64,000 bases of DNA from positions 6 to 64,005 of the forward strand of contig CAMEEX010000002.1 of NCBI GenBank assembly GCA_945915235.1. Reading direction: 5' to 3'. A program made the translations under genes and the position numbers. Positions 856-49,231 of this stretch are shown piece after piece; position 1 is the first letter of the stretch; each line of letters starts with the position of its first letter. The notes under the pieces were generated by a model that made no database searches, was not told the origin of the DNA, and saw only the letters and a program-made list of their open reading frames with translations. Source of the DNA: an uncultured Clostridia bacterium (lineage in GTDB: Bacteria; Bacillota; Clostridia; Lachnospirales; Lachnospiraceae).

Positions 856-1599
856 ATGAATATAGGTGTAATTTTAGCTAGTGGCAATGGTACTCGAGTT
901 AGCTCAAAAATTCCTAAACAATTTATAGAAATAATGGGGAAGCCTATTTTGGCATACACGCTTGAAATTTTTCAAAATAATGAGAATATTGATGCTCTTG
1001 AAATTGTTTGTCAAAAAGATTGGATTAAAACTGTAGAACAAATTTGCGACAAATATAATATTACAAAAAAACGCTGGTTATGCACTGGGGGATCATCCTT
1101 TCAAGAATCTACAATGAATGGCATTTTTCATCTAAAAAACAAAATTTCTGAAAATGATATCGTTGTTATTTCATTTGGCGTATCTCCTATGACACCTCAA
1201 GAAGATATCAACGATTCAATACGCGTATGTAAAAAACACGGAAATGCTATCGCTTCAGCTGATATTGACCTTTGTACATGCATAAAAGATGATGATTATT
1301 CAACTACACAGAATATTATTAGAGAAACAATAAAAGGATTTGCAAATCCATGGACATTCAAATTCGGTGAATTATGTGATGCCTACGAGGAAGCTGTTCA
1401 AAAAGATATTCTTAATGATTTGGAACCGCATACAACTTCACTTTATTTAGCATTAGGCAAAAGATTGTGGTTTTCTCAGTGTACGTCACCGCAATATAAA
1501 ATAACACATAAGGCAGATATTGATCTTTTTGAAGGAAGTTTATTGCTTAAAGAAAAACGTGAAAGGGAGACACATAATGATAACATACAAAGAATTTGA
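856..1599 (+). CDS. IspD/TarI-like sugar-phosphate (ribitol-5-P / MEP type) cytidylyltransferase
   Basis: N-terminus MNIGVILASGNGTRVSSKIPKQFIEIMGKPIL matches the TarI/IspD GxGxR...PKQF signature. RBS AAAGGA lies upstream. Confidence 0.75.
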   Translation: MNIGVILASGNGTRVSSKIPKQFIEIMGKPILAYTLEIFQNNENIDALEIVCQKDWIKTVEQICDKYNITKKRWLCTGGSSFQESTMNGIFHLKNKISENDIVVISFGVSPMTPQEDINDSIRVCKKHGNAIASADIDLCTCIKDDDYSTTQNIIRETIKGFANPWTFKFGELCDAYEEAVQKDILNDLEPHTTSLYLALGKRLWFSQCTSPQYKITHKADIDLFEGSLLLKEKRERETHNDNIQRI

Positions 1600-3421
1600 A
1601 GTAATAAGAACATTACTCAAGGCAGATAAAACACCAACAGATATAGCCACATACGTTTATCTCAATATTCATTATTATGTATTTAAATCGAAAGATGAAG
1701 TTGCCGAACTTACTACCAGTCTTGAAAAAAAGGGGTATTTGAATAACGGTAAAGTGACAGAGACTGCAATAGAAGAATTAAGACCTTTGAAAGTTAATAA
1801 TGCCGTTATTCTTGCTGCGGGTGGTTCTGACATCTCAGCAAAATCTGTTTACAATATGCCCAAAGGTCTTTTTATGAAAAATGGAGAAACACTAATAGAA
1901 CGTCAAATCCGACAGCTTAAGGAAGCCGGAATTGATAATATAACTGTTATAATCGGATATAAACAGGAACTTTTTTTCTTTCTTATTGATAAATGGCGGG
2001 TTAATATTGAAATTAATCCTGATTTAAAGAAAAACAACATTTATTCGTTATATATTGCTAAAAATTCTCTTGGCTCAACCTATATTCTTAATTGTGATAA
2101 TTATTTTGAGGAAAATCCTTTTTCTCAATATGAGTATAACTCCTTTCATGCAACCGTTTATAAAGAAGACGCACATAATGAATTAGTAGTAAAGAAAAAT
2201 CAATCAGGAAGAATACTTAATATATATAGTTGTGTCAAAAGCGGGGAATGTATATATGGTCATGCATATATCAATTTTGAATTAAGTCGTAGGCTTGTAC
2301 AGTATATGGAAAAAGAAATTGATGACTTTCGCGTATCTGCACTTTTTTGGGAAGAATTTATTAATCGTCACATTGACGATCTTGATATGTATGTAAGGGA
2401 ATATCCTAGTAATTTTTTATATGAATTTGATTCTATTCAGGAAATTCAGAATATTGATGGTTTATTTCTTAGCAATGTATCTGGGTGGATTAATGAGAAA
2501 ATATGTTCTGTTCTTAATTGTACAGAAGATGAAATCAGTGATATTAACGTATTACAAAAAGGTCTTTCCAATATTCTTTTTACATTTGTTGTCCGAGACG
2601 AACGTTATATTTTTAGATACCCTGGAGACAGTACACATTTCTTTATATATAGAAAAAATGAATGTGTGGCTAATAGATTAGCCGCACAAGCTCATGTAGA
2701 TGACACATATATATATATAGATGAGCAAGGCGCCAAGATTTCAAAATTTCGTGAGAATTGTATTGACCTTCACGGTAAATATTACACTGATATTGAATTA
2801 ATGAAACAAATTGCCAGAAAGATACGTGCTTTCCATGACATGGGATACGATTTACCTAATTGGAAAGAATATACCTATGACCCCATATGGCAGTGTGAAC
2901 GCCTTTTTAAGGAAGCCTCAAAAATAAAAGGCGATTTATTTAAAATTTTTGAAAAAGAATGGATTATGCTTCGAAAACTTCAGCACTATGCTGATATGGA
3001 CGGGGTCAAGCATACAATGTGCCACAATGATATTAATATCGATAATATATTGATGACTGAAACAACTCTGGATATTATAGACTATGAATTTGCAGGATAC
3101 AATGACCCCGGATATGATTTCGGACGTGTGATTGCCGGAATCGATTACGAGGTCAATGATCCAAAAATTAAACAAATTCTTGAAGCGTATTTTGATCGCC
3201 CTGCTACAGAAAAAGAATACCTTCATTGGATGGCATACTCTGCGATTCATAATTGGTATTATGTTGGCTGGGCTCTTTATAAAGAAAGCATAAATGAAAG
3301 TAGCAGAGATTGGATGATATTCTTCTATAAACAGGCAAAAAAACTTGCCGCCTGGTGTTTACCACAATATGAAGCAATTTATGGTTACATGGAAGATCCC
3401 ACAACTACTCCATTGAACTAA
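1577..3421 (+). CDS. Three-domain protein: winged-helix-like N-terminus + LicC-like nucleotidyltransferase + LicA-like choline/ethanolamine-type kinase
   Basis: ATG at 1577 follows GGGAGA. The first ~70 aa (KEFEVIRTLL...LEKKGYL) look winged-helix-like. VILAAGGSDISAKSVYNMPKGLF...GIDNITVIIGY is an NTP-transferase fold. HNDINIDNILM and IIDYEFAGYNDPGYDFG are APH/choline-kinase catalytic motifs. I trimmed the track start at 1520. Confidence 0.75.
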   Translation: MITYKEFEVIRTLLKADKTPTDIATYVYLNIHYYVFKSKDEVAELTTSLEKKGYLNNGKVTETAIEELRPLKVNNAVILAAGGSDISAKSVYNMPKGLFMKNGETLIERQIRQLKEAGIDNITVIIGYKQELFFFLIDKWRVNIEINPDLKKNNIYSLYIAKNSLGSTYILNCDNYFEENPFSQYEYNSFHATVYKEDAHNELVVKKNQSGRILNIYSCVKSGECIYGHAYINFELSRRLVQYMEKEIDDFRVSALFWEEFINRHIDDLDMYVREYPSNFLYEFDSIQEIQNIDGLFLSNVSGWINEKICSVLNCTEDEISDINVLQKGLSNILFTFVVRDERYIFRYPGDSTHFFIYRKNECVANRLAAQAHVDDTYIYIDEQGAKISKFRENCIDLHGKYYTDIELMKQIARKIRAFHDMGYDLPNWKEYTYDPIWQCERLFKEASKIKGDLFKIFEKEWIMLRKLQHYADMDGVKHTMCHNDINIDNILMTETTLDIIDYEFAGYNDPGYDFGRVIAGIDYEVNDPKIKQILEAYFDRPATEKEYLHWMAYSAIHNWYYVGWALYKESINESSRDWMIFFYKQAKKLAAWCLPQYEAIYGYMEDPTTTPLN

Positions 3422-14470: not shown

Positions 14471-14472
14471 TT

Positions 14473-19507: not shown

Positions 19508-19520
19508 ATTATCACCGTTC

Positions 19521-20894: not shown

Positions 20895-20920
20895 GTTAAT
20901 TTATATCCTTCCCTAACAAC

Positions 20921-23014: not shown

Positions 23015-23049
23015 AATAAACACCCTTCTGCAGTATTACTACAATAAAC

Positions 23050-24141
23050 TTACCTTATAGAGTCGATAAAATCTTCTAATCTCAGTTTATCGTCTTCTGA
23101 CAATATATCCTCTTGCTTTAATCTTTCACGTTTTACTTCCTCATCAGATATTGCCAACGCATAATGCTTTGTCGCAAATGTATTTACATCAACGGTAACC
23201 AGTCCATTTGATGAAAAAGGCAACAAATATAATTTTCCATCTTTATATACCATATTAGAAAACGGAATATCTTTTACGCCTCTTATGCTGTCAATATTTT
23301 TAAATGTATCCGGCAATTCAATTTTTCTCATCTCGGCAGCCGAAGTATCCTGTACATATATGGAGCCATCCGAATTCACATAAAAAATGTTATTATTTTT
23401 TTTAAGTGCAAATGAACATGAGTTTATTCTTCCATTTTCACTGTCCAGAACCAAGCTTGCAGTACCATCGTCATTTATCCCAAATACACTTTTTCTGTCA
23501 GTTCCACAAGCAAACACCTTTTCCACATCCCCCGTTATCTTGGATAATAGCTTTCCACCGCAATGAATAAGTTTAATAACCTCACCTGCAATATAATCTG
23601 CATATATCACCATATCCGTTCCCGAAACAGCAAACCAGACCCTACCGTTATCACATATATAACTATATATTTTATTCTCACTATTAAACTCTATTGGAAT
23701 ATCTATAATATCTGAAAACGCCAAACCTTGGTCATATGTTCCAGTCTCTGTGTCATATACCATAATATGCTGATTAATATTATACGGAAGCATATAAATC
23801 CTACCTTCAACTGCTTCAGCGCTACAATACAGAAGTTCTCCTATCTTACCAATATTATAATTTAATCCAAGTCTGGTAAAATGCCCTGTAAATCTATCGA
23901 TCTTTATTAACTGAGCTGTATTTCTCAATATACAATAAATAAAATCCCCAACCAAAAGCGAAGTCATTATAAGTCCTACTCTATATATCTCATTATATCT
24001 CCCCAATGGCATTAATCTTGAAATAGTATTATACTTTTCCGTGTCTAAATCCCACTCTGCCATCAACCATGAATCCATATCACTCATAATCAACTTGTTA
24101 TCCAGAAACAGCACATTGTACGTTGACAAATATTTATCCAT
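23050..24141 (-). CDS. Hypothetical protein, repeat-containing (possibly beta-propeller-like), acidic helical C-terminus
   Basis: The ORF fills the gap in the operon. It has recurring hydrophobic-strand/turn segments (IYMLPYNINQHIMVYDTETGTY, VWFAVSGTDMVIYADY, IFYVNSDGSIYVQD, KLYLLPFSSNGLVTVD). I recognise no catalytic motif. Confidence 0.4.
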   Translation of the reverse strand: MDKYLSTYNVLFLDNKLIMSDMDSWLMAEWDLDTEKYNTISRLMPLGRYNEIYRVGLIMTSLLVGDFIYCILRNTAQLIKIDRFTGHFTRLGLNYNIGKIGELLYCSAEAVEGRIYMLPYNINQHIMVYDTETGTYDQGLAFSDIIDIPIEFNSENKIYSYICDNGRVWFAVSGTDMVIYADYIAGEVIKLIHCGGKLLSKITGDVEKVFACGTDRKSVFGINDDGTASLVLDSENGRINSCSFALKKNNNIFYVNSDGSIYVQDTSAAEMRKIELPDTFKNIDSIRGVKDIPFSNMVYKDGKLYLLPFSSNGLVTVDVNTFATKHYALAISDEEVKRERLKQEDILSEDDKLRLEDFIDSIR

Positions 24142-24171
24142 TAAATTATACCTATCCTATCTGCTTAACGC

Positions 24172-25581: not shown

Positions 25582-25615
25582 ATATGCCTCCAAAAATTTC
25601 CCAATTTATGTAATA

Positions 25616-26521
25616 TTATAACTCTGATATATAATTTTGATAGGACGTGTCAGGATCAAACACAGCTCCCATGTGTACTGTCTTTCTCATCTCTATAGGA
25701 GGCATGGACATATAATCTCCATACGCAACTGTAAGTATGTTATCATACCCTATCGGCATTGGAACATCATAATTTTCGAATTTTCCCATAACTACTTTGT
25801 CAAATGCATTTGTATCATACGTCTGTCTTTCATATCCGTATGCATTATATACCATCAACGCAGTCTTATTTTCATCTATATAATTATATTTTGATGCTAT
25901 CTTCTGTATTTTGTTATAAACTTCTACGCTGGACATTCCCTGCCACTTTTGTACCCTCTCAATGTCCTGTCTACTAAGATTAGGATTATCCTTTCTCATA
26001 TATGTAGAATTTTGAATCGCGAGCTGTATAATAGCATTGTAATCTTTCTCCTGTGTATCTTGGTTTACCTTATCTACCGGAAAAATATCCAAACATATTC
26101 CTTGATTCATTTTACTATACTTAAATTTTTCTATAAGCGATGTTGTGTTTGAGTTTCTCAACCTTGCGAATGAAAAACCACTATATTCATCGGTTAAAGG
26201 TATCTGCAAAAAATACGGATTCTCAAATTCGTATGCTAAACTCACAAATCTATCATAATCATCCCTGAGCATAGCAACATCAATGTCATCATCCCACGGT
26301 ATAAAACCTTTATGCCTTACAGCCCCAAGCAAGGAACCTCCAAATATATAATATTTTAAACCATGTTTTTTACATACACGTTCAAACTCAAGGTATAAAT
26401 CCAACTCAACTGCCCAGATTTTTTTCATTCGTTCATTAACATAGTAATCGCATCTATACTCCGGCTTTAAAAATTCTTCGCTAATTCTTCCACTCTTCAA
26501 TATTCTCTCTACTTCAGTCAT
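25616..26521 (-). CDS. licD: LicD-family phospho-alcohol (phosphocholine / ribitol-phosphate type) transferase
   Basis: YYIFGGSLLGAVRHKGFIPWDDDIDVAMLRDDYDRF is the LicD nucleotidyltransferase-fold signature. Confidence 0.85.
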   Translation of the reverse strand: MTEVERILKSGRISEEFLKPEYRCDYYVNERMKKIWAVELDLYLEFERVCKKHGLKYYIFGGSLLGAVRHKGFIPWDDDIDVAMLRDDYDRFVSLAYEFENPYFLQIPLTDEYSGFSFARLRNSNTTSLIEKFKYSKMNQGICLDIFPVDKVNQDTQEKDYNAIIQLAIQNSTYMRKDNPNLSRQDIERVQKWQGMSSVEVYNKIQKIASKYNYIDENKTALMVYNAYGYERQTYDTNAFDKVVMGKFENYDVPMPIGYDNILTVAYGDYMSMPPIEMRKTVHMGAVFDPDTSYQNYISEL

Positions 26522-27725
26522 GCTCGTTTTCTACCTCAACCTTATAATATTGGCTCATATTATTTGTAATATCTATCATTTCCTGCATTGAATCTGCTTT
26601 AAAAATTATAGTTCCCAATGAGTGGGAAGTATTTTGATATTCATGCACATAATCTCCCGCTTCCGCAGTACAATAAACATTTAATAAATTTTTTTCCTTA
26701 AATCTTCTCTCAAAGTTGATATCTTTAAACCGTCCACTCTCAGTACTATAAATCATATAGTTGCTATAATATCCATTGCTTTCTGCCATTGTCAATTCAC
26801 TGCAGTCTTCTCCCATATAACCCATTATTGTATACTTAACTAAATCAACTCCCGTTGCATACTTTATTAACTGCGGTATATAACTTCCTCCGTTGCGTGG
26901 TCCCAATTCAAGAATAAAAACATTATCATTCTGATCAATTATAACCTCTATGTTATAAGCACATGTTTTCATTCCCAATGCTGTTATCAGTTTTTGCAGT
27001 TCATTATCGATTTTATCTTTCATTTCTTTACTTAATAATGACGGCCAAAATTCACCCAAAGCAACATACTCTCTTGTTCCATTTGAACTATATAGCTCGT
27101 TTCCGTAACTTGTAAATACTAATTTGCCATCTACGGAAAACCCATCACCTGATACCTGATATCCCTTTTTTACAATAAACTCTTCGACAATAAACCTTTT
27201 TTTTCTTGAATAACTAAGCGCTTCTTTAACAGCCTCTTTTAGCCCGGATTTATCATACACCTTAACAACTCCCTTACTTCCTGAGGAGTCCACCGGTTTT
27301 ACCATTACCGGCATTTTATATCTGTCCATATCTGCATATGCTTCTTCATATGAATCATATCCACAAGCGGTTGGCACATTAAAACCATTATTTTTTAGAA
27401 AAGCACGGAACAAATCCTTCTGTGTAAGAATATTAACTGATTTATAGGGATTGCCGATAAGCCCCATTTTTTCTGCTACATATGCTGCTGTTGGCGCAGC
27501 CGGATCAGATGCATATGCTACAATCCCATCTATTTCTTTCTCTTTTGCCAGTTGGAGTACCCCTTCAATATCTGTTGTGCTTACATTATAATATTCATCC
27601 GCCAACTTATGCCCAGGATTTTCCGGCAAATAGTCGCATGTTATAACATGGTATCCCAAATCTTTCGCACATTGTATTGCCGGAATCTGTTGTCTTGCTC
27701 CACCTAACATTAATATCTTTTTCAT
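26514..27725 (-). CDS. ATP-grasp domain ligase
   Basis: A pre-ATP-grasp Rossmann region (KKILMLGGARQQIPAIQCAKDLGY) is followed by MPVMVKPVDSSGSKGV and VFILELGPRNGG. The start is at ATG 27725. Confidence 0.8.
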   Translation of the reverse strand: MKKILMLGGARQQIPAIQCAKDLGYHVITCDYLPENPGHKLADEYYNVSTTDIEGVLQLAKEKEIDGIVAYASDPAAPTAAYVAEKMGLIGNPYKSVNILTQKDLFRAFLKNNGFNVPTACGYDSYEEAYADMDRYKMPVMVKPVDSSGSKGVVKVYDKSGLKEAVKEALSYSRKKRFIVEEFIVKKGYQVSGDGFSVDGKLVFTSYGNELYSSNGTREYVALGEFWPSLLSKEMKDKIDNELQKLITALGMKTCAYNIEVIIDQNDNVFILELGPRNGGSYIPQLIKYATGVDLVKYTIMGYMGEDCSELTMAESNGYYSNYMIYSTESGRFKDINFERRFKEKNLLNVYCTAEAGDYVHEYQNTSHSLGTIIFKADSMQEMIDITNNMSQYYKVEVENEHD

Positions 27726-27744
27726 TATGTACAACCTTCTATGT

Positions 27745-28908
27745 CTAAATATTTTTAATAAAATTCTCTATTCTAATAATTGCTTTCTTCAAATTATCCA
27801 TATCTAATGTAAAGGCAATTCTAATATAGTATTTGTATATGTTTCCATATGTAATCCCGGGAACCACCGCAACATGTTCCATCTCAAGTAATTTGTTGGC
27901 AAATTCCATACAGTCCAATCCTGTCTCACTTATATTCACAAACAAATAAAATGTTCCGTCCGGTTTATGACAGCTTAACTTAGGAATATTATTTATTGCG
28001 GCAACCATATAATTTCTGCGTTCTTCATATACATCACAAATTCTTGTGTCATCCAGATGAAATTTATATGCAGCTATTGCAGCATACTGTGATGGCAATG
28101 GAGCACATGCACATATATTTTCCTGCATCTTAATCATATTTTTTATGAAATCTTCCGGTCCTATTGAATATCCAAGTCTATAACCTGTCATTGCAAATCT
28201 TTTTGAAATACTATCTATCAATACAGTTCTATCCTGCATTCCATCTCTTGTAATAATACTGTCATGCTTTTTCCCGTCAAAAAGTATAGTTTTATATACC
28301 TCATCCGAAAAAATCACTAGATTATATTTATTGGCGATATCCGCAATGTCATCAAGCAATTTGCTGCCCAATTCCATTCCGGATGGATTTGCCGGAGAAT
28401 TCAACACCATTGCAACTGTTCTATCTGTAATCTTTTCCAAAATCTGTTCTGTTGTAGGTTGAAAGTCGTTATCCTCAAATGTATTGATAACTACCGGTAC
28501 TCCCTCACACATTTTGATCATTTGAACATAGTTTACATAATGTGGTGATATGATAATCACCTCGTCTTTAGGATCAAGCAATGTAAGAAATGCCAGATAC
28601 AACGACTCCATTCCACCTACCGTAACCACCACATCTGTATTCGGATTTGCTTTCAAACCATATTCCTTGTAAAAGCAATCACATATAGCCTTACGCAATT
28701 CCATCAATCCTGCATTAGCCGAATATCTGGTTTTGCCACTCTGTATAGCATCACAAGCAGCCTCTTTTATGCCTGTATCTGTCTGAACATCCGGATCACC
28801 TAATGTAAAATCTATAACATCATCATACGCCTGTGCCATATTGAACAATTTTCTGGTCAATGACGCCTCTAATGAATTAGCCTTCTTTGATACTTTCATT
28901 TTCCACAC
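27745..28908 (-). CDS. Class I/II (AspC-like) PLP-dependent aminotransferase
   Basis: NSPANPSG, FSDEVY and SISKRFAMTGYRLGY (PLP lysine motif). The start may be M4 (28899). Confidence 0.85.
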   Translation of the reverse strand: MWKMKVSKKANSLEASLTRKLFNMAQAYDDVIDFTLGDPDVQTDTGIKEAACDAIQSGKTRYSANAGLMELRKAICDCFYKEYGLKANPNTDVVVTVGGMESLYLAFLTLLDPKDEVIIISPHYVNYVQMIKMCEGVPVVINTFEDNDFQPTTEQILEKITDRTVAMVLNSPANPSGMELGSKLLDDIADIANKYNLVIFSDEVYKTILFDGKKHDSIITRDGMQDRTVLIDSISKRFAMTGYRLGYSIGPEDFIKNMIKMQENICACAPLPSQYAAIAAYKFHLDDTRICDVYEERRNYMVAAINNIPKLSCHKPDGTFYLFVNISETGLDCMEFANKLLEMEHVAVVPGITYGNIYKYYIRIAFTLDMDNLKKAIIRIENFIKNI

Positions 28909-29434
28909 CTTTACTCATTTCTTCATCATACTCACATCTAAGGATTGAGTAAATTAGCAAATCTACAAATTTTCCATCTTTATAGTTTGCCTTTCGCTTT
29001 CTTCCTTCATATACAAATCCACATTTTTCGTATAAATGTATTGCCCTTTTGTTATCAGCCAAAACACATAATTCTACCCTTTGTAAATTCAAATTGTTAA
29101 ACGCGTGCCAAAGCATCCTATTTACAGCATAAGTTCCAGCTCCTTTATTTTGATTTTCTGAATCTCCAACCATAATTTGAAATTCTGCAGATTGATTTTG
29201 AAAATTAATAGATGTAAGACTTACAATTCCTAATATCTCGTCACAGGAATCATTAACAATTGCACATCTTACATTTTCCATTCGATTTGCCATATAATTA
29301 TTAAACCAATTCACGTCCACTTCATAATTAATAAATCTAAAAGGTGCCCCTAAATAACTTATTAGTTTTTCGTCATTCCTCCAGTTATTTATTTTATTTA
29401 AATCTCTTCTCTCTATTTCTCTCAGTCTATACAT
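28877..29434 (-). CDS. GNAT-family N-acetyltransferase
   Basis: The N-terminus is RLREIERRDLNKINNWRND. QNKGAGTYAV and HLYEKCGF are acetyl-CoA-binding motif A-like segments. Confidence 0.75.
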   Translation of the reverse strand: MYRLREIERRDLNKINNWRNDEKLISYLGAPFRFINYEVDVNWFNNYMANRMENVRCAIVNDSCDEILGIVSLTSINFQNQSAEFQIMVGDSENQNKGAGTYAVNRMLWHAFNNLNLQRVELCVLADNKRAIHLYEKCGFVYEGRKRKANYKDGKFVDLLIYSILRCEYDEEMSKGVENESIKEG

Positions 29435-30372
29435 TTTCTTACCATATCCTCCATATATTCCATATCTGAAATTTCATACCTTTGGTCAATTGGAAGCGGT
29501 AATATATTTTTAGCAAACTCGTACTCCAATGTTCCTTCTTTACATTCCTCCAGCACATTTGGCCATAATGTCGGAACATAAATCTTGTTCAGCTGTAATT
29601 TTTTTCTCACTTCACAGCCATTCTTTATTAACAACGGATACATAAAAGCACCATATGGAACAATCAGGTCTAATTCATTTATATCTGAAAACGCTTTATA
29701 CAACTTCTCAAAATTATGTTGTCTTTTACTTCCTACACAATTATAATTAATGCCTCTCAATAGGTTTTCTGTTAATTTCGACATCGTTTTTATTGGCTGT
29801 ATCTCTATTAATGCATTGTTTTCAACATATTTGTCATAAAATTCACTTGCAGTACACTCGAAACGTCCAAGTAAAAAAGTCATTCTTGAATAAGATTCAT
29901 CTTGTTCAAGCTGTCTATCTATTTTTTTATTAGTATATAAAAAAGCACCATCCGCAACACCAAAATATTTACGACAGCTATATAATGTATCAACATTAGC
30001 AATTGGCATCTGAAAATAACTCTGCGTGTTATCCACAATAACATTTGTATATTTCTTTTTTAATTCATATAATATTGTGTTATCAAGTTGACCGTAAAAA
30101 TTAACTATATATATCCATTCATTCTCATTTATTTTTTCGCATATTGGCATAAAATGTTCATCAATATGATATTTTTCCACTTTTACATTATATTGAATAA
30201 ATACACTATCACATGAACTGCACATAAAAAACGGCATTAAAATATGCTTAATTTTTTTTGTTTCTATAATATAGGCCAATGCGTTTTTAGCACAATTCAA
30301 AGTCACTGCACCTTCATGAAGCATCGGTAAATTATAGTGTTCCAACTCTATATAACCACCAATTTCTTTCAT
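29422..30372 (-). CDS. Divergent DegT/DnrJ/EryC1/StrS-like fold-type-I PLP enzyme (tentative)
   Basis: The IGGYIELE N-terminus and YSCRKYFGVADGAFLY can be aligned to SFHATKVFNTIEGGAV of the neighbouring DegT enzyme, with the lysine retained. The assignment is weak. Confidence 0.45.
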   Translation of the reverse strand: MKEIGGYIELEHYNLPMLHEGAVTLNCAKNALAYIIETKKIKHILMPFFMCSSCDSVFIQYNVKVEKYHIDEHFMPICEKINENEWIYIVNFYGQLDNTILYELKKKYTNVIVDNTQSYFQMPIANVDTLYSCRKYFGVADGAFLYTNKKIDRQLEQDESYSRMTFLLGRFECTASEFYDKYVENNALIEIQPIKTMSKLTENLLRGINYNCVGSKRQHNFEKLYKAFSDINELDLIVPYGAFMYPLLIKNGCEVRKKLQLNKIYVPTLWPNVLEECKEGTLEYEFAKNILPLPIDQRYEISDMEYMEDMVRKCID

Positions 30373-31567: not shown

Positions 31568-31596
31568 TTAAAAAGGCTGCCATTCCCATGGCAGCC
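31568..31596 (-). terminator. Rho-independent terminator downstream of the LicD-paralog pair
   Basis: Minus strand reads GGCTGCC-ATGGGAAT-GGCAGCC followed by TTTTT. The stem lies at 31575-31596. Confidence 0.75.
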
Positions 31597-31703
31597 TCTG
31601 TAAACTATCAATTCCCTATAATGCCTCCATGCATTTTACAACCCGCTATCCATGCGGATTCGTTGTTTCGTCCTGTTTTGTACACATTTCGATTAATTCT
31701 TAT
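31568..31703 (-). ncRNA. Candidate ~135-nt structured RNA (independent sRNA, attenuator leader or 3' UTR) with three GGA-loop hairpins
   Basis: No ORF is present. Hairpins are AUCCGC-AUGGAUA-GCGGGU (about 31641-31659), AAUGC-AUGGAG-GCAUU (about 31620-31635) and the terminator GGCUGCC-AUGGGAAU-GGCAGCC. It is bounded by a sigma-28-like promoter and a U-tract. Confidence 0.3.
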
Positions 31704-31710
31704 ATTTATT

Positions 31711-31737
31711 TTATCGGCATTTTCGGTATTTTCTTAA
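31711..31737 (-). promoter_or_regulatory. sigma-28 (SigD/FliA)-like promoter inside the LicD-to-DegT intergenic region
   Basis: Minus strand reads TTAA (31737-31734), 15 nt, GCCGATAA (31718-31711). The -10 is an exact match to the SigD -10 consensus as I know it. The -35 is weaker (consensus TAAA). Confidence 0.4.
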
Positions 31738-31779: not shown

Positions 31780-34113
31780 TTACCCCACCTCCACATTCTC
31801 CAGCATAACCGGTTTGCCCGCGCGCACGAACTTCTGAATAATGCTGTCCACGTCACCATAGTACGCATGTCCTATCAGTGCGAGCTCATCGGGCTGTATT
31901 TTTCCGGTTCCGTCATATATTCCCCAGCCCTTTTTCAGATACTCGTCCACCACCGACACATACTCCTGCCACAGCTCGGGATATCTGCTCTCCAATACAG
32001 GTCCCACTATCGGATTGTCGATCCACAGGAAGGTTATTGACTCCGCTTCTCTCTCAAATGTCGCGAGTATGCTTCTCAGCTTTTCTATGTATCTGTCCCT
32101 GTTCTGAAGGATAAAGCTTATGTTATTCTTGTATACGACAACCTTCTTCTCCCTGCCGTCACCGTCGTACATGAGTTTCTTCCACTGCTCCGGCAAGGTT
32201 GAGATTACCTGCTTTCGCAGCGCCTGTTCTGTCTCCTGCCTGTATGCCGGCAATCTGGTCTGAATTTTCTTCTCCCATAGCTCTGCCGTATCGTCCCCGG
32301 CAAATTCAGCGAGCAGCTTCACATAGGTCTGTCTGAAGCTCTCCGACTTCACAATCACCCTGTCCGCCTGCATAACGCCCTTGCTGCACATGTAATTGCG
32401 TGCATTGAGCAGTGATTTCTCGTCATCGTCCCTGATATCATCGATATCAAACGGAGGAACGAATACCAGACAATCCGTATATTTTCTGAGATTATCCGAA
32501 TGAAACGGCGGATATATTCCTATAACAAAATCGTGCTGGTCATAAGGGCACTGTATATAAATCTCATCGGGGTGCCTTGAGGCAATGTCATACTGTCTGT
32601 AGTCGGTAAGCTGTACCGCCTCAGGAAAGCCTTCGCTCTCGTAGCAATCCTCAAGGATTTCTCCTCTTGCTGTTTTTATAAAGTACGGCTCGGGCATTAC
32701 GATCACATCGCAGTCCTCATCGTTGCTGTACTCTCTCCACAGGTCATCGAAACCTCTCCACAGTGATGCTTTATATGGTATGAATACTATCTCCCGTCTT
32801 TTTTGCAGTTTTTCAACACCGGCTTTTAATTTTGTGAGTGCGTCATCGACCATTCCGCACATAACCAGCCTGCTCTCCACGCTGCCCGCCTCACCCGAGC
32901 TTATCAGCTCGTACATGCTGTAGACGGTTTCACAGTATTCCTCGAATGTTTTTATAAGGCTGTCCGTATTGGAAAAATTGTTCTCAACCGCATTTCCCGC
33001 ACCTATGGCGACATTCTGGCAGCTCTCAAGAAGCTGCAACACCGTCTCAATATCGTTTGTCTGCACCAGCCTGATTATATTCGTGTGTATCTTGGCAAGC
33101 ACCTCAACCGCTTCAAGCACCTGTCTTTTCACATTTTCACGGATATTGACATCGCTCCTGACACACGGTTTTAAGTCCTCCTCAGAAAAATAATATTTGT
33201 AAGGGAGGCCATTGGTGTAGAGCTTCTCCGCCTCCGCCTCCGCTTTATCAAAATACGGGTAGTCGTGGACTCCGCCCGAATGTATAAGAACCATGTAATT
33301 TCCATAGTCCTCCCTCAGTATCTCATCATACATGGCGGGCGCATTGATGGTCATGTTCTCAAACGGAAGCTCTATAATATCCTTATAATACTCAAGCTTA
33401 TACTTATGAGTTCCCTTTTCTATCCAGTAAGTCATAAGTGCAACCTCTGTGGCGCCATCTTCGGGAGTATACAGCGCATACATCTTCTCCGCAAATTCAC
33501 ACATCTGATGGACAAGCGGCTTGTCCCTGTCGAAGTGGACATGGCAGAGTCTCTCGACGGTTTCCACCGCCTCAAGCGTGCTGGCAAATTCACATTGGTC
33601 CGTTCCGATGCTGTTTATTATTGAGGTTGCGAGCTTTATCATCTCCTTGCGAAATTCCTCGTCCTGCTCATTCGGCGCAATGTAGTCGAGCACAAATATA
33701 TCCACACCTGCCGGATACGGGAACTGATGAAATTTAGCTATATGTGTTTTTGTAAAATTTACCTTCGAGTCATTATTGACTCTGGTAATCATGTCATCAA
33801 AATCCAATGCCTCATGGACATTCAGAACATAATAGTCCTCCGGGAGCTCACTCTTAGCTATGCTGTTGAACTTATCATAGTCCTCTCTGAGCATGCCGAT
33901 ATCCAGGTCGTCGTCCCACGGCACGAACCCGCCATGGCGCACTGCTCCCAAAAGTGTTCCATAGTCTGCAAACCATCGGATATTATGTTTTTTGCACACT
34001 CTTGCGACCTCATTGAGCACCTCAAGCTCTGCCGCCCATGCCCTCTTAACTATACCTGGCACAAAAAAACCGTCTCTGACCTCATCATCAAAATAATTGT
34101 CCGGGAATTGCAT
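31780..34113 (-). CDS. Large LicD-domain protein (N-terminal LicD fold + ~500-aa uncharacterised C-terminal region), paralog A
   Basis: WFADYGTLLGAVRHGGFVPWDDDLDIGMLREDYDKF is LicD. I recognise no catalytic motif in the C-terminal region (VFIPYKASLW..., IYIQCPYDQHD, LVFVPPFDIDD). Confidence 0.75.
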   Translation of the reverse strand: MQFPDNYFDDEVRDGFFVPGIVKRAWAAELEVLNEVARVCKKHNIRWFADYGTLLGAVRHGGFVPWDDDLDIGMLREDYDKFNSIAKSELPEDYYVLNVHEALDFDDMITRVNNDSKVNFTKTHIAKFHQFPYPAGVDIFVLDYIAPNEQDEEFRKEMIKLATSIINSIGTDQCEFASTLEAVETVERLCHVHFDRDKPLVHQMCEFAEKMYALYTPEDGATEVALMTYWIEKGTHKYKLEYYKDIIELPFENMTINAPAMYDEILREDYGNYMVLIHSGGVHDYPYFDKAEAEAEKLYTNGLPYKYYFSEEDLKPCVRSDVNIRENVKRQVLEAVEVLAKIHTNIIRLVQTNDIETVLQLLESCQNVAIGAGNAVENNFSNTDSLIKTFEEYCETVYSMYELISSGEAGSVESRLVMCGMVDDALTKLKAGVEKLQKRREIVFIPYKASLWRGFDDLWREYSNDEDCDVIVMPEPYFIKTARGEILEDCYESEGFPEAVQLTDYRQYDIASRHPDEIYIQCPYDQHDFVIGIYPPFHSDNLRKYTDCLVFVPPFDIDDIRDDDEKSLLNARNYMCSKGVMQADRVIVKSESFRQTYVKLLAEFAGDDTAELWEKKIQTRLPAYRQETEQALRKQVISTLPEQWKKLMYDGDGREKKVVVYKNNISFILQNRDRYIEKLRSILATFEREAESITFLWIDNPIVGPVLESRYPELWQEYVSVVDEYLKKGWGIYDGTGKIQPDELALIGHAYYGDVDSIIQKFVRAGKPVMLENVEVG

Positions 34114-34134
34114 TTTTCTAACCTCACATGTTCT

Positions 34135-36456
34135 TTATATTTCAACGCTCTCAATCATAACAGGCACGCCGTTTTTCTGGCATATCCTCGACAAATAACA
34201 GCCATCTCCATAGTACGCATCGGCAAGCTCCGCTACAGCATGTCCATCTGACATGTCATGTATTCCGATATCGCTGGCACAGGCTGCCAGTTCTTCTATC
34301 TCTCCGGCAAGCTTCGGATTTGTCCGTCTCACGGACTCCATCGTACATTCAGGGAAATTCCAAACCACTGCAATATCCTGAGAGTTATCCTTAAACACCT
34401 CTAAAGCCCGCCTGACCTTCGCTGCGGCAGCCGCGCCATTCTCAAGGAAAAAGCCGACCTCGTTATGGTATAATATTATTTTTTTCCTGCTGCCGTCGGG
34501 CTTATAGATTATCCTTCTGACCTCGTCAGGCATATCGGCAAGCTTCTGCTCATTATGCACGGCAGCCTGTCCGTCAGCCACAGTCGTCTGGTTCCCCGTT
34601 CCGACAAGCTTCTGCTCCCATATACTTCTGCTGTCCTCACCTGCCCATTCGGTCAGCTTATCACAGTACACTTTTTTCAGCGCCTCCGATTGTACCATAA
34701 CCCGATGTGCTCTCACTACCCCCGGCACAGGGGCATAATGCTTCATATTATGATACTCGCGCTCGTCGCTGTCCGTGAACTCATCAACGGCAAACGGCGT
34801 AACATATATCATGGTCTCGCAGCTCTCCAGAAGCTTTCCCGTATAATATGCCGGGTGTATGCTTATCCCCTCATTCCACTCGTCATACGGATTTTGTATA
34901 TATACAACATCTGGTCTGTGTAGTGCAATATCATATTCATTGTACTTCACCACCCTGACGTTTTCCGGCGTATCTTGAAGCAGCTCTAAAAACGCCTCAT
35001 ATTCGCAGTGCTCATCGTACAATGCGCCATCGTATCTTTTATGGAAATAAGGTACCGGTATGACATATATTTTACAGTCACTCTGTACTGCTTTCAGGTA
35101 TTCAGCCCTTATATACTGCCACTGTGCAGTCCTTGACACGACAAAAACCGTTTCCTTCCTGTCAATTATGTCCTTCCGAACACATTCAGCTATCTCCACG
35201 GCGCATTTTCTAAGCTTCTCCGCCGCATCGCCCTTCTGAACCTGCTCGTACAGAAGCTCACAATAATTTTCCAAAATTCCGACTGTCTCAAGTCCTTCTC
35301 CATACTGCTGCTCTATGAGCGTACCGAAATCAACCGCAAGCTGCTGTGCCTCATACGGATCCTTAATATCATAAAGCTCCTCACATACCGCATGGGCGAT
35401 ATCCTCGAAGCTGTCAGCAGCTTTCGCCTTCCGGCATTCACCCAAGGCATATTCTTTCTCCGTCTCGTTGTACTCATACTTAGGAAGCGTTATGTCCATC
35501 AGTGCATCAAGCTGCGCCTGCTGGCTCTCGTAAAACGGATAGCCGTGACCGCTGCAATCCTTATGTATCTCCAGATAATTCCCATACCGCTTTCTAAGCA
35601 TCGCGTCATACCCTATCGGAACCGGTATTGTGGTATTTTCAAACGGTATTCTCACACAGTCCTCATAGTATTCCTTCTTATACCTGTGATTTTTCCTTCT
35701 GAGTCCGAAAGGATACAACTGCGTAAGCTCATCGCTCTCCTTATCACTGAACTTTGCAAATAGTCTTTCCGCCTGAATGTACATATATTGATGCAGCTCA
35801 GATATGTACTTTTTTACCTCATCATCGGCGCTGTCCCCGGCAAGCCAGTTCTCTATATATCTCCTGTTGTACATTCCATGTATGCAGCCCGTCTGTGTAA
35901 GTTTGTTAAGCCCGTCAAAGGCGTCCTTCACACTAATATTCTTTTCCGCTATATGGTCCGCGAGCGTAATCGTATAGTCAGCGAGAACATCCCTCGTCTT
36001 TTCAGCCTCCGCGTCTCTTGCAACATAGTCCATAAGAAATATGTCAACGCCCGCAATGTACGGAAATTCATGATATTTTCTCAGATGGGCTTCATCATAG
36101 CTCATGTGTCCGGTGTTCATCACCCTTGCAAGGAACAGCCAGAAATCATCTCTTGTATGCAGGTTATTAATCTTGTATCCCTGCGGCAGCTCACTCTCGG
36201 CGACCTTGAGAAACTTCTCATAATCGGCGCGTTTCATGCCGATATCCAGATCATCGTCCCACGGTATAAAACCGTTATGTCTCACCGCCCCGAGCAGTGT
36301 TCCCCACTCTGCAAAATACTGTATATTGTGCCTGCGGCATATCCTGTCAATCTGCTCAAGGACTTCCAGCTCCGCCGCCCATGCACGCTTTATCATGGAA
36401 GGTACAAAAAATCCCTCCCTAATCTCATCTTCAAAATATTCTTCCGGAAACTGCAT
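34135..36456 (-). CDS. Large LicD-domain protein, paralog B (same architecture as 31780-34113)
   Basis: MQFPEEYFEDEIREGFFVPSMIKRAWAAELEVL...YFAEWGTLLGAVRHNGFIPWDDDLDIGMKRADYEKF. It is collinear with paralog A along the whole length (VVYIQNPYDEWNE, MIYVTPFAVDEF). Confidence 0.75.
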   Translation of the reverse strand: MQFPEEYFEDEIREGFFVPSMIKRAWAAELEVLEQIDRICRRHNIQYFAEWGTLLGAVRHNGFIPWDDDLDIGMKRADYEKFLKVAESELPQGYKINNLHTRDDFWLFLARVMNTGHMSYDEAHLRKYHEFPYIAGVDIFLMDYVARDAEAEKTRDVLADYTITLADHIAEKNISVKDAFDGLNKLTQTGCIHGMYNRRYIENWLAGDSADDEVKKYISELHQYMYIQAERLFAKFSDKESDELTQLYPFGLRRKNHRYKKEYYEDCVRIPFENTTIPVPIGYDAMLRKRYGNYLEIHKDCSGHGYPFYESQQAQLDALMDITLPKYEYNETEKEYALGECRKAKAADSFEDIAHAVCEELYDIKDPYEAQQLAVDFGTLIEQQYGEGLETVGILENYCELLYEQVQKGDAAEKLRKCAVEIAECVRKDIIDRKETVFVVSRTAQWQYIRAEYLKAVQSDCKIYVIPVPYFHKRYDGALYDEHCEYEAFLELLQDTPENVRVVKYNEYDIALHRPDVVYIQNPYDEWNEGISIHPAYYTGKLLESCETMIYVTPFAVDEFTDSDEREYHNMKHYAPVPGVVRAHRVMVQSEALKKVYCDKLTEWAGEDSRSIWEQKLVGTGNQTTVADGQAAVHNEQKLADMPDEVRRIIYKPDGSRKKIILYHNEVGFFLENGAAAAAKVRRALEVFKDNSQDIAVVWNFPECTMESVRRTNPKLAGEIEELAACASDIGIHDMSDGHAVAELADAYYGDGCYLSRICQKNGVPVMIESVEI

Positions 36457-36486
36457 CTGCTTTCTCCCTATTGTGATTATTAATGT

Positions 36487-36513
36487 ATATCGGTTAATTC
36501 TCTGTTATTATTA
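36487..36513 (-). promoter_or_regulatory. sigma-28 (SigD)-like promoter upstream of the LicD-paralog pair
   Basis: Minus strand reads TAAT (36513-36510), 15 nt, ACCGATAT (36494-36487). This is the same -10 octamer as the fliC promoter, about 30 nt upstream of ATG 36456. Confidence 0.4.
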
Positions 36514-36540
36514 ATATTACTGCAATCTGCCGTATCGCGT

Positions 36541-36569
36541 TTGACCTTTTTCATTGCAGGCGTTATAAT
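36541..36569 (+). promoter_or_regulatory. sigma-A promoter for the GT4-GT2 gene
   Basis: TTGACC (36541-36546), 17 nt, TATAAT (36564-36569). AGGAGG lies 6 nt before ATG 36601. Confidence 0.55.
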
Positions 36570-36600
36570 TTTTTGTATCAGTCCCTTTTAGGAGGTAAAA

Positions 36601-38091
36601 ATGGACAACAAAAAAGATATTTTGATTGATTTTCTTATCCCGATTGCCGGCGAAGGCGGAGCCGAGCGCGTTATGAACGTGGTGCTCGAATATCTCAACA
36701 ATAACGGCTTCCATGCCCGTGTTGTTCAGCTTATATCTGACGGAAGCCGTCACTTTAACAGCAGCATTGATGTTTACCCCATTCTTATAAATCAAAGAGT
36801 CAATGACCTGAGCGAGCTCTCGGGTCTGTATACCGCATTTCTGTCACAGTACGGTGTCCCGGACATTGTTGTCGCCACTTCCTGGCCTTATCTGATACTG
36901 ACGGCGCGCAAGGCTCTCGAGCCATTTAACACTCCATGCAAAGTCTACTCCTGGCTGCACAACGCTTTAAGCGAATATTCACGTTACGGTGCCGGGGGAA
37001 TTGAATGTATGAGACTTGCCGACCACCACCTGTGCATCAGCAGACACGCCGCCGACATTCTTATCAAGGATAACCCCGATGTCAGCACCTCCATCACATT
37101 CAATCCTGTCGATATGAGCCACTATATTCCTCAGAAACAGTACCATTCTGACAGCAGAACGCTGCTCTATGTAGGACGTTTATCGCCGGAGAAACGTGTC
37201 GATATCATTCTACGAGGTCTTGCCTCCGTCAATATGCGGCAGCCCGGGCTGCCATGGAAGCTTCGTATAGTGGGCGACGGTGACGAGCGCCGTTCAATCA
37301 TAGAACTGATTGACGAACTGCGGCTCGGCGACTATGTCACCTTAACCGGCTGGCAGAGCAATCCTTGGCAATACTGCGATGATATCACAGCTCTTGTCGT
37401 TGCATCGGAATGTGAAGGCGGCCCCCTTGTCGCGGTTGAAGCTCTTGCCAACGGCATTCCCGTCATATCGACCCCCGTTGACGGAGTTATCAAGCTGATT
37501 ACGCCCGGAATAAACGGCTGGCTGTTCCCTCACAATGACCACGAAGCACTCGCTGATATCTTATGCGCCATCTCGGACAGAACTCTCCCTGCCATCAAGC
37601 CCTGTGCCTGCACAGAGAGCGTATCCTGTTACGAGCGCGACACGGCTCTTGCGAATTTCAAGAGGGCTCTTTATGACGGACTCGACAAAATATCAATCAT
37701 AGTCTACTGCTTCAATGCGGAAAAACAGCTTCGAAAATGTCTCGACAGCCTGCTGTCGCAGACGCTTACTCGGGCAGCCATGGAGTTTATCTGCGTGGAC
37801 AATCATTCCACTGATAACTCGCTTGACATACTGAGCGAGTACGAGCAAAAATACTCTGATATTTTTATGCTTATTCCGCTTTCCGAGAGCATACCGCCTG
37901 AACATGCCAAGGGTATCGCATTGGATTACTCAACCGGAAACTATATTACATATATGGACACCGAGGATTGTATTCCACCCACTCTGCTTGAAAATCTCTA
38001 TACCCACATAAAAATATACGGCGGCGACATAGAAGGCAGAATATACCAAAGGAGCTCTCTCCTTAACAGGGCTGACTACACAGCGGAATAA
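36601..38091 (+). CDS. Bifunctional-looking glycosyltransferase: GT4 (GT-B) domain + short C-terminal GT2 (GT-A) half-domain
   Basis: YVGRLSPEKRVD and ASECEGGPLVAVEALANGIPVISTPVDG are the GT4 EX7E region. ISIIVYCFNAEKQLRKCLDSLLSQTL...FICVDNHSTDNS...YMDTED is the GT2 N-terminal half. The protein ends ~135 aa after the GT2 domain starts. Confidence 0.8.
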   Translation: MDNKKDILIDFLIPIAGEGGAERVMNVVLEYLNNNGFHARVVQLISDGSRHFNSSIDVYPILINQRVNDLSELSGLYTAFLSQYGVPDIVVATSWPYLILTARKALEPFNTPCKVYSWLHNALSEYSRYGAGGIECMRLADHHLCISRHAADILIKDNPDVSTSITFNPVDMSHYIPQKQYHSDSRTLLYVGRLSPEKRVDIILRGLASVNMRQPGLPWKLRIVGDGDERRSIIELIDELRLGDYVTLTGWQSNPWQYCDDITALVVASECEGGPLVAVEALANGIPVISTPVDGVIKLITPGINGWLFPHNDHEALADILCAISDRTLPAIKPCACTESVSCYERDTALANFKRALYDGLDKISIIVYCFNAEKQLRKCLDSLLSQTLTRAAMEFICVDNHSTDNSLDILSEYEQKYSDIFMLIPLSESIPPEHAKGIALDYSTGNYITYMDTEDCIPPTLLENLYTHIKIYGGDIEGRIYQRSSLLNRADYTAE

Positions 38092-40604: not shown

Positions 40605-41423
40605 TTAGCCAAGGATTGAAAGAACACCCTGTGTTGACTGATTAGCCTGTGCAAGCATAGACTGTCCAGCCTGAGCAAGAATGTTGTTCTTGCTGTAGCT
40701 AACCATCTCATCAGCCATATCAGTATCACGGATACGTGACTCAGCTGAAGATGTGTTCTCAGATGTTGTGTCAAGGTTAGCGATTGTGTGCTCAAGTCTG
40801 TTCTGGATAGCACCGAGCTTAGATCTCTGTGTAGATACACTCTCGATAGCCTTCTGAATAGCGCTCATTGTAACACCAGCTGTTGCGTTAGAGCTTACCT
40901 TAAGATTATCAGCTGATAAGCCGATAGCTGATGCAGACATGTTACTAATAGAGATAGACATTGTCTGCCCCTTAAGAGCACCGATCTGAAGAGACTTGTT
41001 CTTGAATGATCCAGTTAACAGGTTCTGAGTATTGAACTGTGTTGTAGACTGAATTCTGTCAAGCTCTTTCTTAAGCTCATCGATCTCATCCTTGATAGAG
41101 TTTCTATCAACTGTTGTGTTAGTATCGTTAGCAGCCTGCGTAGCGAGCTCGTTCATTCTCTGAAGAATGGAGTGTGCCTCGTTAAGAGCACCTTCTGCTG
41201 TCTGGATAAGAGATACGCCGTCAGCTGCGTTGTCAGATGCCTTATCAAGACCTCTGATCTGATATCTCATCTTCTCGGAAATTGAAAGACCAGCTGCGTC
41301 ATCGCCTGCTCTGTTAATTCTGTAACCTGAAGATAACTTCTCTGCTGACTTAGCCTGTGCGCTAGTTGTGATGCCTAACTGTCTGTTAGAGTTCATCGCT
41401 GTAAGATTGTGCTGTACTACCAT
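40605..41423 (-). CDS. fliC: Flagellin (short, 272 aa)
   Basis: The N-terminus is MVVQHNLTAMNSNRQLGITTSAQAKSAEKLSSGYRINRAGDDAAGLSISEKMR. The C-terminus is LAQAGQSMLAQANQSTQGVLSILG. The central segment is Ser/Thr-rich. Confidence 0.95.
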   Translation of the reverse strand: MVVQHNLTAMNSNRQLGITTSAQAKSAEKLSSGYRINRAGDDAAGLSISEKMRYQIRGLDKASDNAADGVSLIQTAEGALNEAHSILQRMNELATQAANDTNTTVDRNSIKDEIDELKKELDRIQSTTQFNTQNLLTGSFKNKSLQIGALKGQTMSISISNMSASAIGLSADNLKVSSNATAGVTMSAIQKAIESVSTQRSKLGAIQNRLEHTIANLDTTSENTSSAESRIRDTDMADEMVSYSKNNILAQAGQSMLAQANQSTQGVLSILG

Positions 41424-41524: not shown

Positions 41525-41551
41525 ATATCGGTTCAAAGTCCTATAACTTTA
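41525..41551 (-). promoter_or_regulatory. sigma-28 (SigD/FliA) promoter of fliC
   Basis: Minus strand reads TAAA (41551-41548), 15 nt, ACCGATAT (41532-41525). The consensus is TAAA-N15-GCCGATAA. Confidence 0.7.
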
Positions 41552-41580: not shown

Positions 41581-42060
41581 TTATTTTTTCTTATCCATGA
41601 ATACAGGTTCACTCGTAACCTTGTTCATGGTCTTGTAATAGTTAGCGGCATACTGCTGGTTCTTCTTCACGCTGCTGATTTCCTTGCGGCGCGATGCAAA
41701 CTTGCCCTCTATTCTGTCCTTATTGCGCTTCTCCTCCGCCATGAGATGGCTGCTCTTCTCCATTATCTGAGTTATCTTGCCCTGAAGCCTCTTTATCTCA
41801 GAAGCATATCTGTCCTTATTTCCGTCAAGCTCTGCCTTCACATTGTTGTAGACAAGCTGAAAGCCTTCATCCATCGCATTGAGCCGGTCTATAAGCTCCG
41901 CCTTCTGCTCAACAATATGTCCGAACGCCGCCTCGTCGAATGTCACGGCACTTAGCACCTTTTCCTGCTCTACGTTAAGTCTCTCAACCGAGTCAAGAAT
42001 GTCAATCTTCTTGTCAAGACTGCTCTCCAATATTGTCAAATAGCTCTCTGTCATGCTCAT
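41581..42060 (-). CDS. Putative flagellar export chaperone (FliT position; FlgN-like coiled coil)
   Basis: It sits between fliS and fliC, as fliT does in Bacillus. The protein is helical and charged (ILESSLDKKIDILDSVERLNVEQEKVL...). The start is at ATG 42060 after GAGGAA. I see no diagnostic motif. Confidence 0.4.
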   Translation of the reverse strand: MSMTESYLTILESSLDKKIDILDSVERLNVEQEKVLSAVTFDEAAFGHIVEQKAELIDRLNAMDEGFQLVYNNVKAELDGNKDRYASEIKRLQGKITQIMEKSSHLMAEEKRNKDRIEGKFASRRKEISSVKKNQQYAANYYKTMNKVTSEPVFMDKKK

Positions 42061-42101
42061 GGTGTTCCTCATTTCCATATCCTGCACTTGCAGATACTGT
42101 T

Positions 42102-49208: not shown

Positions 49209-49231
49209 CTTACTGCCTCCTTCCGTCCTGC

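Follow-up and report, generated by a model that had tools for sequence, protein, structure and literature searches.

Enzymes of the LicD/fukutin/FKRP family transfer a phospho-linked group from a cytidine diphosphate (CDP)-activated alcohol onto a sugar hydroxyl with release of cytidine monophosphate (CMP), and TagF-like enzymes perform the same chemistry with an unrelated fold. We analyzed a 64,000-nt contig stretch (the window) from an uncultured Clostridia bacterium of the Lachnospiraceae, which carries near its late flagellar genes a tandem gene pair whose products, P0001 and P0002, join a LicD domain to a C-terminal region with an apparently inactive TagF-like part. The closest functional analogue of this pair appears to be C. 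difficile FtaD, a TagF-like enzyme that transfers phospho-N-methylthreonine from a CDP donor to the O-GlcNAc of FliC (bioRxiv 10.64898/2026.02.12.704994). FtaD (CD0244) and P. aeruginosa PA1091 are flagellin post-glycosylation phosphotransferases (bioRxiv 10.64898/2026.02.12.704994); the job proposed for the window proteins, transfer of a phospho-substituent from a CDP donor to a flagellin O-glycan, is the same, and FtaD and PA1091 are likewise encoded next to fliC. Compared by description, FtaD is a stand-alone catalytic TagF-like enzyme, whereas in the window proteins the LicD domain is the presumed catalyst.

For this pair we determined which domains and folds are present, the remote homologies, which motifs have been lost, the synteny and a promoter motif. 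An earlier note, made from the letters of this DNA, had described two adjacent genes of 777 and 773 aa with N-terminal LicD domains; the open reading frames were recovered at exactly the coordinates below, with the following parts.

34135..36456, minus strand: P0002, the upstream paralog, 773 aa, with a LicD domain, a linker/helical region and a degenerate TagF-like glycosyltransferase B (GT-B) module
31780..34113, minus strand: P0001, the downstream paralog, 777 aa, with the same architecture as P0002
35581..36339, minus strand: LicD domain of P0002, residues 40-292, DDDLD at 67-71 (PF04991, E 1.8e-35)
33301..33996, minus strand: LicD domain of P0001, residues 40-271, DDDLD at 67-71 (PF04991, E 5.6e-37)
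34138..35448, minus strand: helical bundle and GT-B module of P0002, about residues 337-773 (module hidden Markov model (HMM) positions 2-447, E 1e-163)
32806..33144, minus strand: four-helix bundle of P0001, residues 324-436 (DSSP of the AlphaFold2 model)
32254..32799, minus strand: first Rossmann-like lobe of the P0001 GT-B module, residues 439-620 (AlphaFold2 model and alignment)
31783..32253, minus strand: second GT-B lobe of P0001, residues 621-777, probably homologous to the TagF nucleotide-binding lobe (hhalign)

The LicD domains of the earlier note were borne out by Pfam, with PF04991 scores of 128.4 bits in P0001 and 123.5 bits in P0002 against a cut-off of 22.6 bits. PWDDDLD lies at residues 65-71 of both proteins, with the Asp codons confirmed. 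The LicD part of P0001 matched the FKRP catalytic domain 6kak_A in Foldseek (E 3.4e-5, probability 1.00, about 255-270 aligned columns), and a PDB sequence search also returned FKRP at E 3e-6. Judged by their domains, P0001 and P0002 are members of the LicD family: the N-terminal ~300 aa has the nucleotidyltransferase fold with the DxD-type acidic cluster (DDDLD) of LicD, fukutin and FKRP, and superposes on the FKRP catalytic domain. FKRP differs in bearing an N-terminal stem domain in place of a C-terminal extension. Ordinary bacterial LicD proteins are single-domain and ~300 aa long, and the one that the earlier note had pointed out at 25616-26521 is indeed of this kind (301 aa, E 2.5e-45), whereas the tandem proteins add a 450-aa helical-bundle and GT-B extension that was present in no described LicD protein found by our literature search.

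No Pfam or NCBIfam model matched residues ~300-777 of either protein above threshold, and in NCBIfam neither the LicD-fused nor the non-fused members of this module family belong to a family, a sub-threshold LicD-type match being all that was returned. The AlphaFold2 model of full-length P0001 (predicted local distance difference test (pLDDT) 92.4, predicted template modeling score (pTM) 0.88) consists of LicD to residue ~300, then a four-helix bundle with helices at 324-351, 355-379, 384-406 and 412-436 (DSSP), and then two alpha/beta lobes; residues 300-777 modeled alone gave a pLDDT of 81.8. In Foldseek against the PDB, the C-terminal part of the full-length model matched GT-B enzymes, and the 300-777 model matched UDP-GlcNAc 2-epimerases (E 5e-5, template modeling (TM) score 0.47), and also trehalose-phosphate synthases and the TagF structure 3l7j (E 1.9e-4). 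In these models the C-terminal fold is GT-B, in a divergent form. The ~500-aa region, which had been described as of unknown function, is thus better described as a four-helix bundle followed by a GT-B fold with probable remote homology to TagF-type phosphotransferases, and to that extent, by a remote relationship, it maps to a known domain family. A KpsC/sialyltransferase-like 'HP motif' was considered and dropped, as no such structures were among the Foldseek matches.

Searched against PDB chains, the C-terminal profile matched designed helical bundles only, over the first ~110 residues, and left the GT-B part unmatched; for the first lobe and the helical bundle, no sequence relatives outside the family were detected either among PDB chains or by hhalign against TagF. 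The first lobe still carries the motifs PYKASxW, IQxPYD and VxSE, and the bundle residues conserved across the family are Q366, G373, E377, E391, Y393 and C394 (P0001 numbering). The bundle also has a near-invariant polar/Cys signature, C..Q......G...E followed by E.YCE, in fused and non-fused members, P0002 being without its first Cys; this pattern suggests a candidate ligand or metal site.

For analysis of the C-terminal module, 44 homologs were collected and aligned, and TagF was represented by a profile of seven bona fide TagF proteins from the window genome and its relatives. The two profiles aligned by hhalign at a probability of 84.8% and E 6.5e-6 in the second lobe only, with module positions 582-772 opposite residues 244-399 of a TagF encoded in the window, and a profile of non-fused members only gave E 7.8e-6. 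The segments paired (module : TagF) were GSPKxD : G(Y)PRxD, KKxxxYNTS : KKxxxYAPT, LLWRPHP : xxx(K/R)xHP, SDAYYGDxSS : xDxLITDYSS and GKPVM : xRPxxF. Two other hhalign runs were set aside: a 10-sequence profile against a single TagF produced a meaningless 38-column match, and extension into the first lobe (-mact 0.02, -glob) produced columns of zero confidence, so that no residue is put forward here as the replacement of TagF H444. The Pfam model of the TagF family, PF04464 (Glyphos_transf, cut-off 22.1 bits), matched 9 of the 44 family members at E<=0.1, the best of them, P0028, scoring above the cut-off at 23.5 bits.

These alignments suggest that the second lobe is a remote homologue of the TagF-family CDP-alcohol phosphotransferases. 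P0001 and P0002 themselves are best placed as relatives of the TagF family and not as members, because they fall below the Pfam threshold and are without both catalytic signatures. Like the TagF/TarL/TarF-type polymerases (PDB 3L7I-M, 8VA1 and 8QOY; PF04464, GT-B), they have a two-lobed GT-B fold with helices ahead of it, and non-fused members share the second-lobe motifs GxPxxD, KKxxxY(A/N)(P/T)(T/S), (K/R)xHP and DxxxxDxSS. They differ from the polymerases in that the first lobe of the module has no detectable sequence similarity and no WHG motif, that P0001 and P0002 are without the H584-equivalent His and the motifs around it, and that membrane-association helices are not evident in either. 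The earlier note had recognized no TagF motif in the region, which is true of these two proteins; their homologs show that the motifs have degenerated within a TagF-like domain.

The base proposed for S. epidermidis TagF is H444, within the WHG motif, and H584 of that enzyme makes contact with the pyrophosphate of CDP-glycerol (PMC11666461). In an alignment with 3L7I, the window TagF encoded at 7018-8448 has its WHG opposite H444 and its KHP opposite H584, and hhalign set TagF H584 opposite the His of the module motif WRPHP. This position holds His in 147/149 non-fused modules; in the 31 fused modules it holds D in 12, N in 8, H in 6, Q in 2 and other residues in the rest. The aligned residue is N700 in P0001 (WIDNP) and P702 in P0002 (WNFPE), where the neighboring Trp that anchors the alignment is conserved and the alignment is clear by eye. 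Two further positions, each at least 90% conserved in non-fused modules, have changed identically in the pair: the His of IHNPYD (family H195) is Q521 and the Tyr of IPYF (family Y228) is P554 in both P0001 and P0002. The codons for Q521, P554 and N700/P702 were confirmed in the window DNA. The GSPK, YNTS and GDxSS motifs of the P0001 second lobe are degenerate, and neither protein has a WHG motif with the catalytic base H444. From spacing only, we infer that the IPYF Tyr (Y228) may stand at the WHG position of TagF; a Tyr there is known in other GT-B phosphotransferases (QYA variant; PMC11666461).

Across the family, 86 columns are at least 90% conserved in non-fused modules, and 47 of these remain at least 80% conserved in fused ones; the columns lost in fused modules include those that pair with the TagF signature motifs. 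This motif loss suggests that the GT-B module of P0001 and P0002 is likely catalytically inactive. Among orthologs of P0001, identity is 55-61% in the first lobe, 40-54% in the second lobe and 53-70% in LicD, and orthologs at 44-60% identity retain the module. The conservation indicates that the module is still under constraint, especially in its first lobe, and is not decaying. In a quick maximum-likelihood (ML) tree rooted only at its midpoint, fused members that keep the full set of H195, Y228 and H372 (P0018, P0091, P0125 and L011) adjoin non-fused sequences, and the degenerate fused members (Q-P/A-D/N) sit on more derived branches.

The two window proteins are 32% identical and collinear from end to end (BLASTP, E 1e-143), in agreement with the collinearity reported earlier; both begin with MQFP and end with PVM(L/I)E. 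In the ML tree, each protein groups with its positional counterpart in a homologous pair at locus L094, P0002 with the first (upstream) gene and P0001 with the second (downstream) one, at a Shimodaira-Hasegawa approximate likelihood-ratio support of 100 in both cases. The same order, P0002-like then P0001-like, recurs in G006 and G003, so that it is kept in four genomes. Because the paralog lineages group separately and keep their order elsewhere, the duplication appears old and maintained, and the two lineages are read from the tree as old and order-conserved. The proposal of the earlier note that the duplication stands for two sites or two donor specificities is compatible with this pattern.

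The genes are separated by a spacer of 21 nt, and Shine-Dalgarno-like motifs precede both starts (GGGAG ahead of the ATG at 36456 for P0002, GAGG ahead of the ATG at 34113 for P0001). The pair is preceded by the following element.

36487..36513, minus strand: sigma-28 (SigD/FliA)-type promoter TAAT-N15-ACCGATAT, ending ~30 nt before the P0002 ATG (strict pattern match)

The strict pattern TAAW-N15-RCCGATAT matches twice in the 64 kb, where 0.08 matches are expected by chance: upstream of P0002 and at the fliC promoter (41525-41551). With a relaxed sigma-28 pattern, L094 and G003/L106 each gave a match 40-50 nt ahead of their first fusion gene; aligning the three upstream regions with MAFFT yielded nothing informative. 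The best reading of this promoter motif is that P0002-P0001 forms a flagellar-regulated bicistronic unit.

The genomic context also points to the flagellum. The presumed ultimate acceptor lies in the late flagellar cluster.

40605..41423, minus strand: flagellin, 272 aa, with Flagellin_N and Flagellin_C domains

The central segment of this flagellin, residues 130-200, is 27% Ser/Thr. The late cluster comprises two FlgK genes, FlgL, FliW, FlaG, FliD, FliS, FlgN and flagellin, and is followed by two DUF3880/CgeB-like glycosyltransferases and a GT4-GT2 fusion and then by the LicD pair; beyond the pair, a long minus-strand run of sugar-tailoring genes and transferases extends down to ~3.5 kb. In at least seven genomes or contigs besides the window (L094, L096, L011, L032, L057, G006 and G008), LicD-fused homologs adjoin genes for flagellin, FliD, FliS, FlgN or DUF3880 glycosyltransferases. 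Flippase, ABC exporter and polyprenyl-phosphate transferase domains were absent from the island genes scanned, and neither P0001 nor P0002 has hydrophobic or transmembrane segments, which fits a cytoplasmic protein acceptor.

Given these patterns, we interpret donor, acceptor, inactivity of the GT-B module and division of labor between the domains as follows. P0001 and P0002 would be soluble enzymes of the cytoplasm, modifying the O-glycan of flagellin once glycosylation has taken place. The LicD domain, with its intact DDDLD metal site, would be the catalyst, using a CDP-activated alcohol to place phospho-X on a sugar hydroxyl with release of CMP. The bundle and GT-B module would descend from a TagF-like CDP-alcohol phosphotransferase that has lost the residues aligned with the active site, and this pseudo-enzyme would position glycosylated flagellin, or its glycan, for the LicD domain; it is read as acceptor-positioning because catalytic residues are lost yet constraint persists, especially in the first, acceptor-side lobe. 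The two paralogs would most likely serve two different acceptor positions or donors. Acceptor handling by the GT-B module for a LicD-catalyzed phospho-modification of the flagellin glycan is, in our judgment, the most likely role, at slightly better than an even chance. The earlier note had suggested that the extension may recognize the acceptor, perhaps flagellin; this becomes the favored idea, supported by synteny with flagellar genes, by the sigma-28-type promoter and by the loss of catalytic residues. A more tentative proposal, possible but distinctly weaker, is that LicD took over in cis the catalytic job of a TagF-like phosphotransferase, which survives as a flagellin-recognizing pseudo-enzyme; intermediates with both sites intact would then persist in other Lachnospiraceae.

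Genes that could supply the donor lie at the left edge of the window, where they adjoin genuine TagF genes.

1520..3421, plus strand: choline-kinase and nucleotidyltransferase fusion (LicA/LicC-like), candidate source of a CDP donor (PF01633 E 2e-17, PF12804)
2-637, minus strand: HTH-IspD fusion, an IspD-like cytidylyltransferase
856-1599, plus strand: IspD-like cytidylyltransferase
3533-4225, minus strand: ribulose-phosphate 3-epimerase (Rpe)
4226-5797 and 7018-8448: genuine TagF genes, adjoining the left-edge activating genes

Among donor candidates in the window, phosphocholine made through the LicA/LicC-like gene is the most obvious, and a polyol-phosphate, via the IspD-like and Rpe genes, is the other. 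Activating enzymes differ elsewhere, with a cytidylyltransferase at L096 and Rpe and IspD at L094 and L057. Since these enzymes vary between loci, the family probably uses varied CDP- or CMP-activated donors. Beside the LicD-fusion pair of another locus (L095:4362-8155) are genes for a phosphoenolpyruvate mutase-cytidylyltransferase fusion, a thiamine pyrophosphate-dependent decarboxylase and an aminotransferase, the gene set of a phosphonate pathway, 2-aminoethylphosphonate activation, which hints that some family members may transfer phosphonates.

Several points weigh against acceptor handling on flagellin as we propose it. The TagF homology is remote, at an hhalign probability of only ~85% and with confident alignment limited to the second lobe; PF04464 found no match in P0001 or P0002 at E<=1, and the Foldseek TM-scores were only 0.35-0.49. 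The equivalence of Y228 with WHG depends on spacing and the zero-confidence alignment extension, and motif loss was scored on an HMM alignment built mostly from non-fused sequences and verified by eye for the two window proteins only. Fused modules also retain DAYYGD, KPVM and several invariant Asp and Lys residues, so that nucleotide binding or another mechanism is possible. The sigma-28 assignment is a motif match only: at most other loci the strict pattern is missing ahead of the fused genes, and outside the window the relaxed pattern matched the two loci named above and not the rest. Lastly, the LicA/LicC-like gene is 28 kb from the LicD pair, on the opposite margin of the island, and other activating enzymes are encoded at homologous loci. 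The retained residues also bear on the 'second catalytic domain' that the earlier note had offered as its alternative, by which the GT-B module would still be an active phospho- or glycosyltransferase with other catalytic residues and each protein would install two successive units. The module is well conserved among orthologs; D525, the D584-equivalent positions and several Lys are conserved in fused forms along with DAYYGD and KPVM; and the residue at position 372 is non-random, one clade having D and another N, a possible sign of an altered mechanism. Known capsule polymerases include multi-enzyme proteins that are TagF-like, and the four fused members with full H/Y/H suggest that bifunctional fusions probably exist. 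Against this, all TagF-signature positions (H195, Y228, GSPK, YNTS, R370, H372 and the SS pair) are replaced together in P0001 as well as in P0002, and of the GT-B glycosyltransferase family models only glgA gave a hit, a faint one (E 0.0015). The alternative is weakened by the replaced residues, and we keep it as the main rival, rather unlikely for this pair.

Less probable again is a role in decorating a cell-wall polymer, teichoic-acid-like or another wall polysaccharide, with the flagellar neighborhood being incidental. Teichoic acids are the classical targets of the LicD and TagF families, the 3.5-31 kb region holds two true TagF genes along with RgpF, WbsX, many GT2 genes and one UDP-GlcNAc 2-epimerase gene, and flagellin lies within 10 kb of only 5/80 module loci overall. 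The LicD-fused subfamily, however, is the one found beside flagellin, FliD and FliS, in no fewer than seven genomes or contigs apart from the window, and the sigma-28-type promoter and the lack of transmembrane segments and of flippase, ABC exporter and lipid-carrier transferase genes among the island genes scanned also speak against a wall polymer, leaving this role improbable. Loss of the catalytic motifs would also be seen if the C-terminal region were a functionless, decaying remnant, and similarity of the paralogs could be an artefact of recent duplication; both frames, however, are open over 770+ codons, the module is kept in orthologs at the identities given above, and the paralogs are just 32% identical, each with its own ortholog elsewhere. 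We give this explanation very little credence.

The module belongs to a much larger family. A profile search of 1.84 billion representatives returned 3683 clusters at E<=1e-3 and 2083 at E<=1e-30, and a scan of species-representative genomes found at least 582 module loci, almost all in Lachnospiraceae. The window genome has two copies only, and the module is present in 4 of the 11 relatives searched within the genus. Counted over 195 sequences, the commonest architecture places the module N-terminally, ahead of a variable ~380-aa extension (132/195); 31/195 have an N-terminal extension of >250 aa before the module, which is LicD in those scanned with Pfam, 17/195 are stand-alone modules and 15/195 are other or partial. 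Names looked up in the source records were 'hypothetical protein', including in Roseburia and other Lachnospiraceae, or 'LicD' for fusions. Non-fused members share the helical bundle and GT-B module with the window proteins at 30-35% identity, and differ in retaining the H/Y/H positions and all TagF-like motifs, in usually having the ~380-aa C-terminal extension and no LicD, and in lying mostly outside flagellar loci. Their immediate neighbors are heterogeneous (TnpB, SIS, Rpe, GT2, DegT, FlhB) and indicate no single pathway. Among the 60 immediate neighbors at 30 of these loci (L003-L047), TnpB/Cas12f-like (PF07282) transposon genes account for 10, SIS-domain genes for 5 and ribulose-phosphate 3-epimerase for 4. 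The ~380-aa extension is poorly conserved, with a weak likeness to six-bladed beta-propellers (Brat NHL E 0.003; WD40 ~0.1).

Other features of the window were also recorded. G+C content falls to 32-36% across the sugar-tailoring genes (~12000-30000, compared with 32000-38000), whereas the LicD-fusion pair has 47% and the flagellar genes 43-48%. Acquisition of the island's variable part was probably separate from that of the fusion pair. The two FlgK paralogs of the late flagellar cluster are in tandem (47664-51043), and the cluster has two FlgN-family chaperone genes (41581-42087 and 51067-51582). Between the flagellar rod genes and the FlgN/FlgK block lie genes for a ComF-like double-zinc-ribbon phosphoribosyltransferase and a RecD2-type helicase (52509-55443). 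The 277-nt gap between P0001 and a DegT gene contains GGA-containing hairpins, plus a stem followed by a T-run (31568-31737).

In the human gut microbiota, the flagellins of Lachnospiraceae are major antigens and ligands of TLR5, and to our knowledge their glycans are almost uncharacterized. We found no paper connecting LicD with flagellin glycosylation, and the window pair would be, as far as our literature search found, the first link of LicD-type chemistry to flagellin. If the proposed role is correct, a large unannotated protein family of thousands of clusters gains a name and a testable role, and the fusion may be a clean natural case of one phosphotransferase fold substituting for another in cis, the displaced domain being retained for binding. 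Abundant gut commensals would then carry phosphocholine-type or other phosphodiester decorations on their flagella, a class undescribed for them, and these could alter the recognition of flagellins by host receptors or antibodies. If the donor is CDP-choline, commensal flagella would bear phosphocholine, a known host-interaction epitope on other bacteria.

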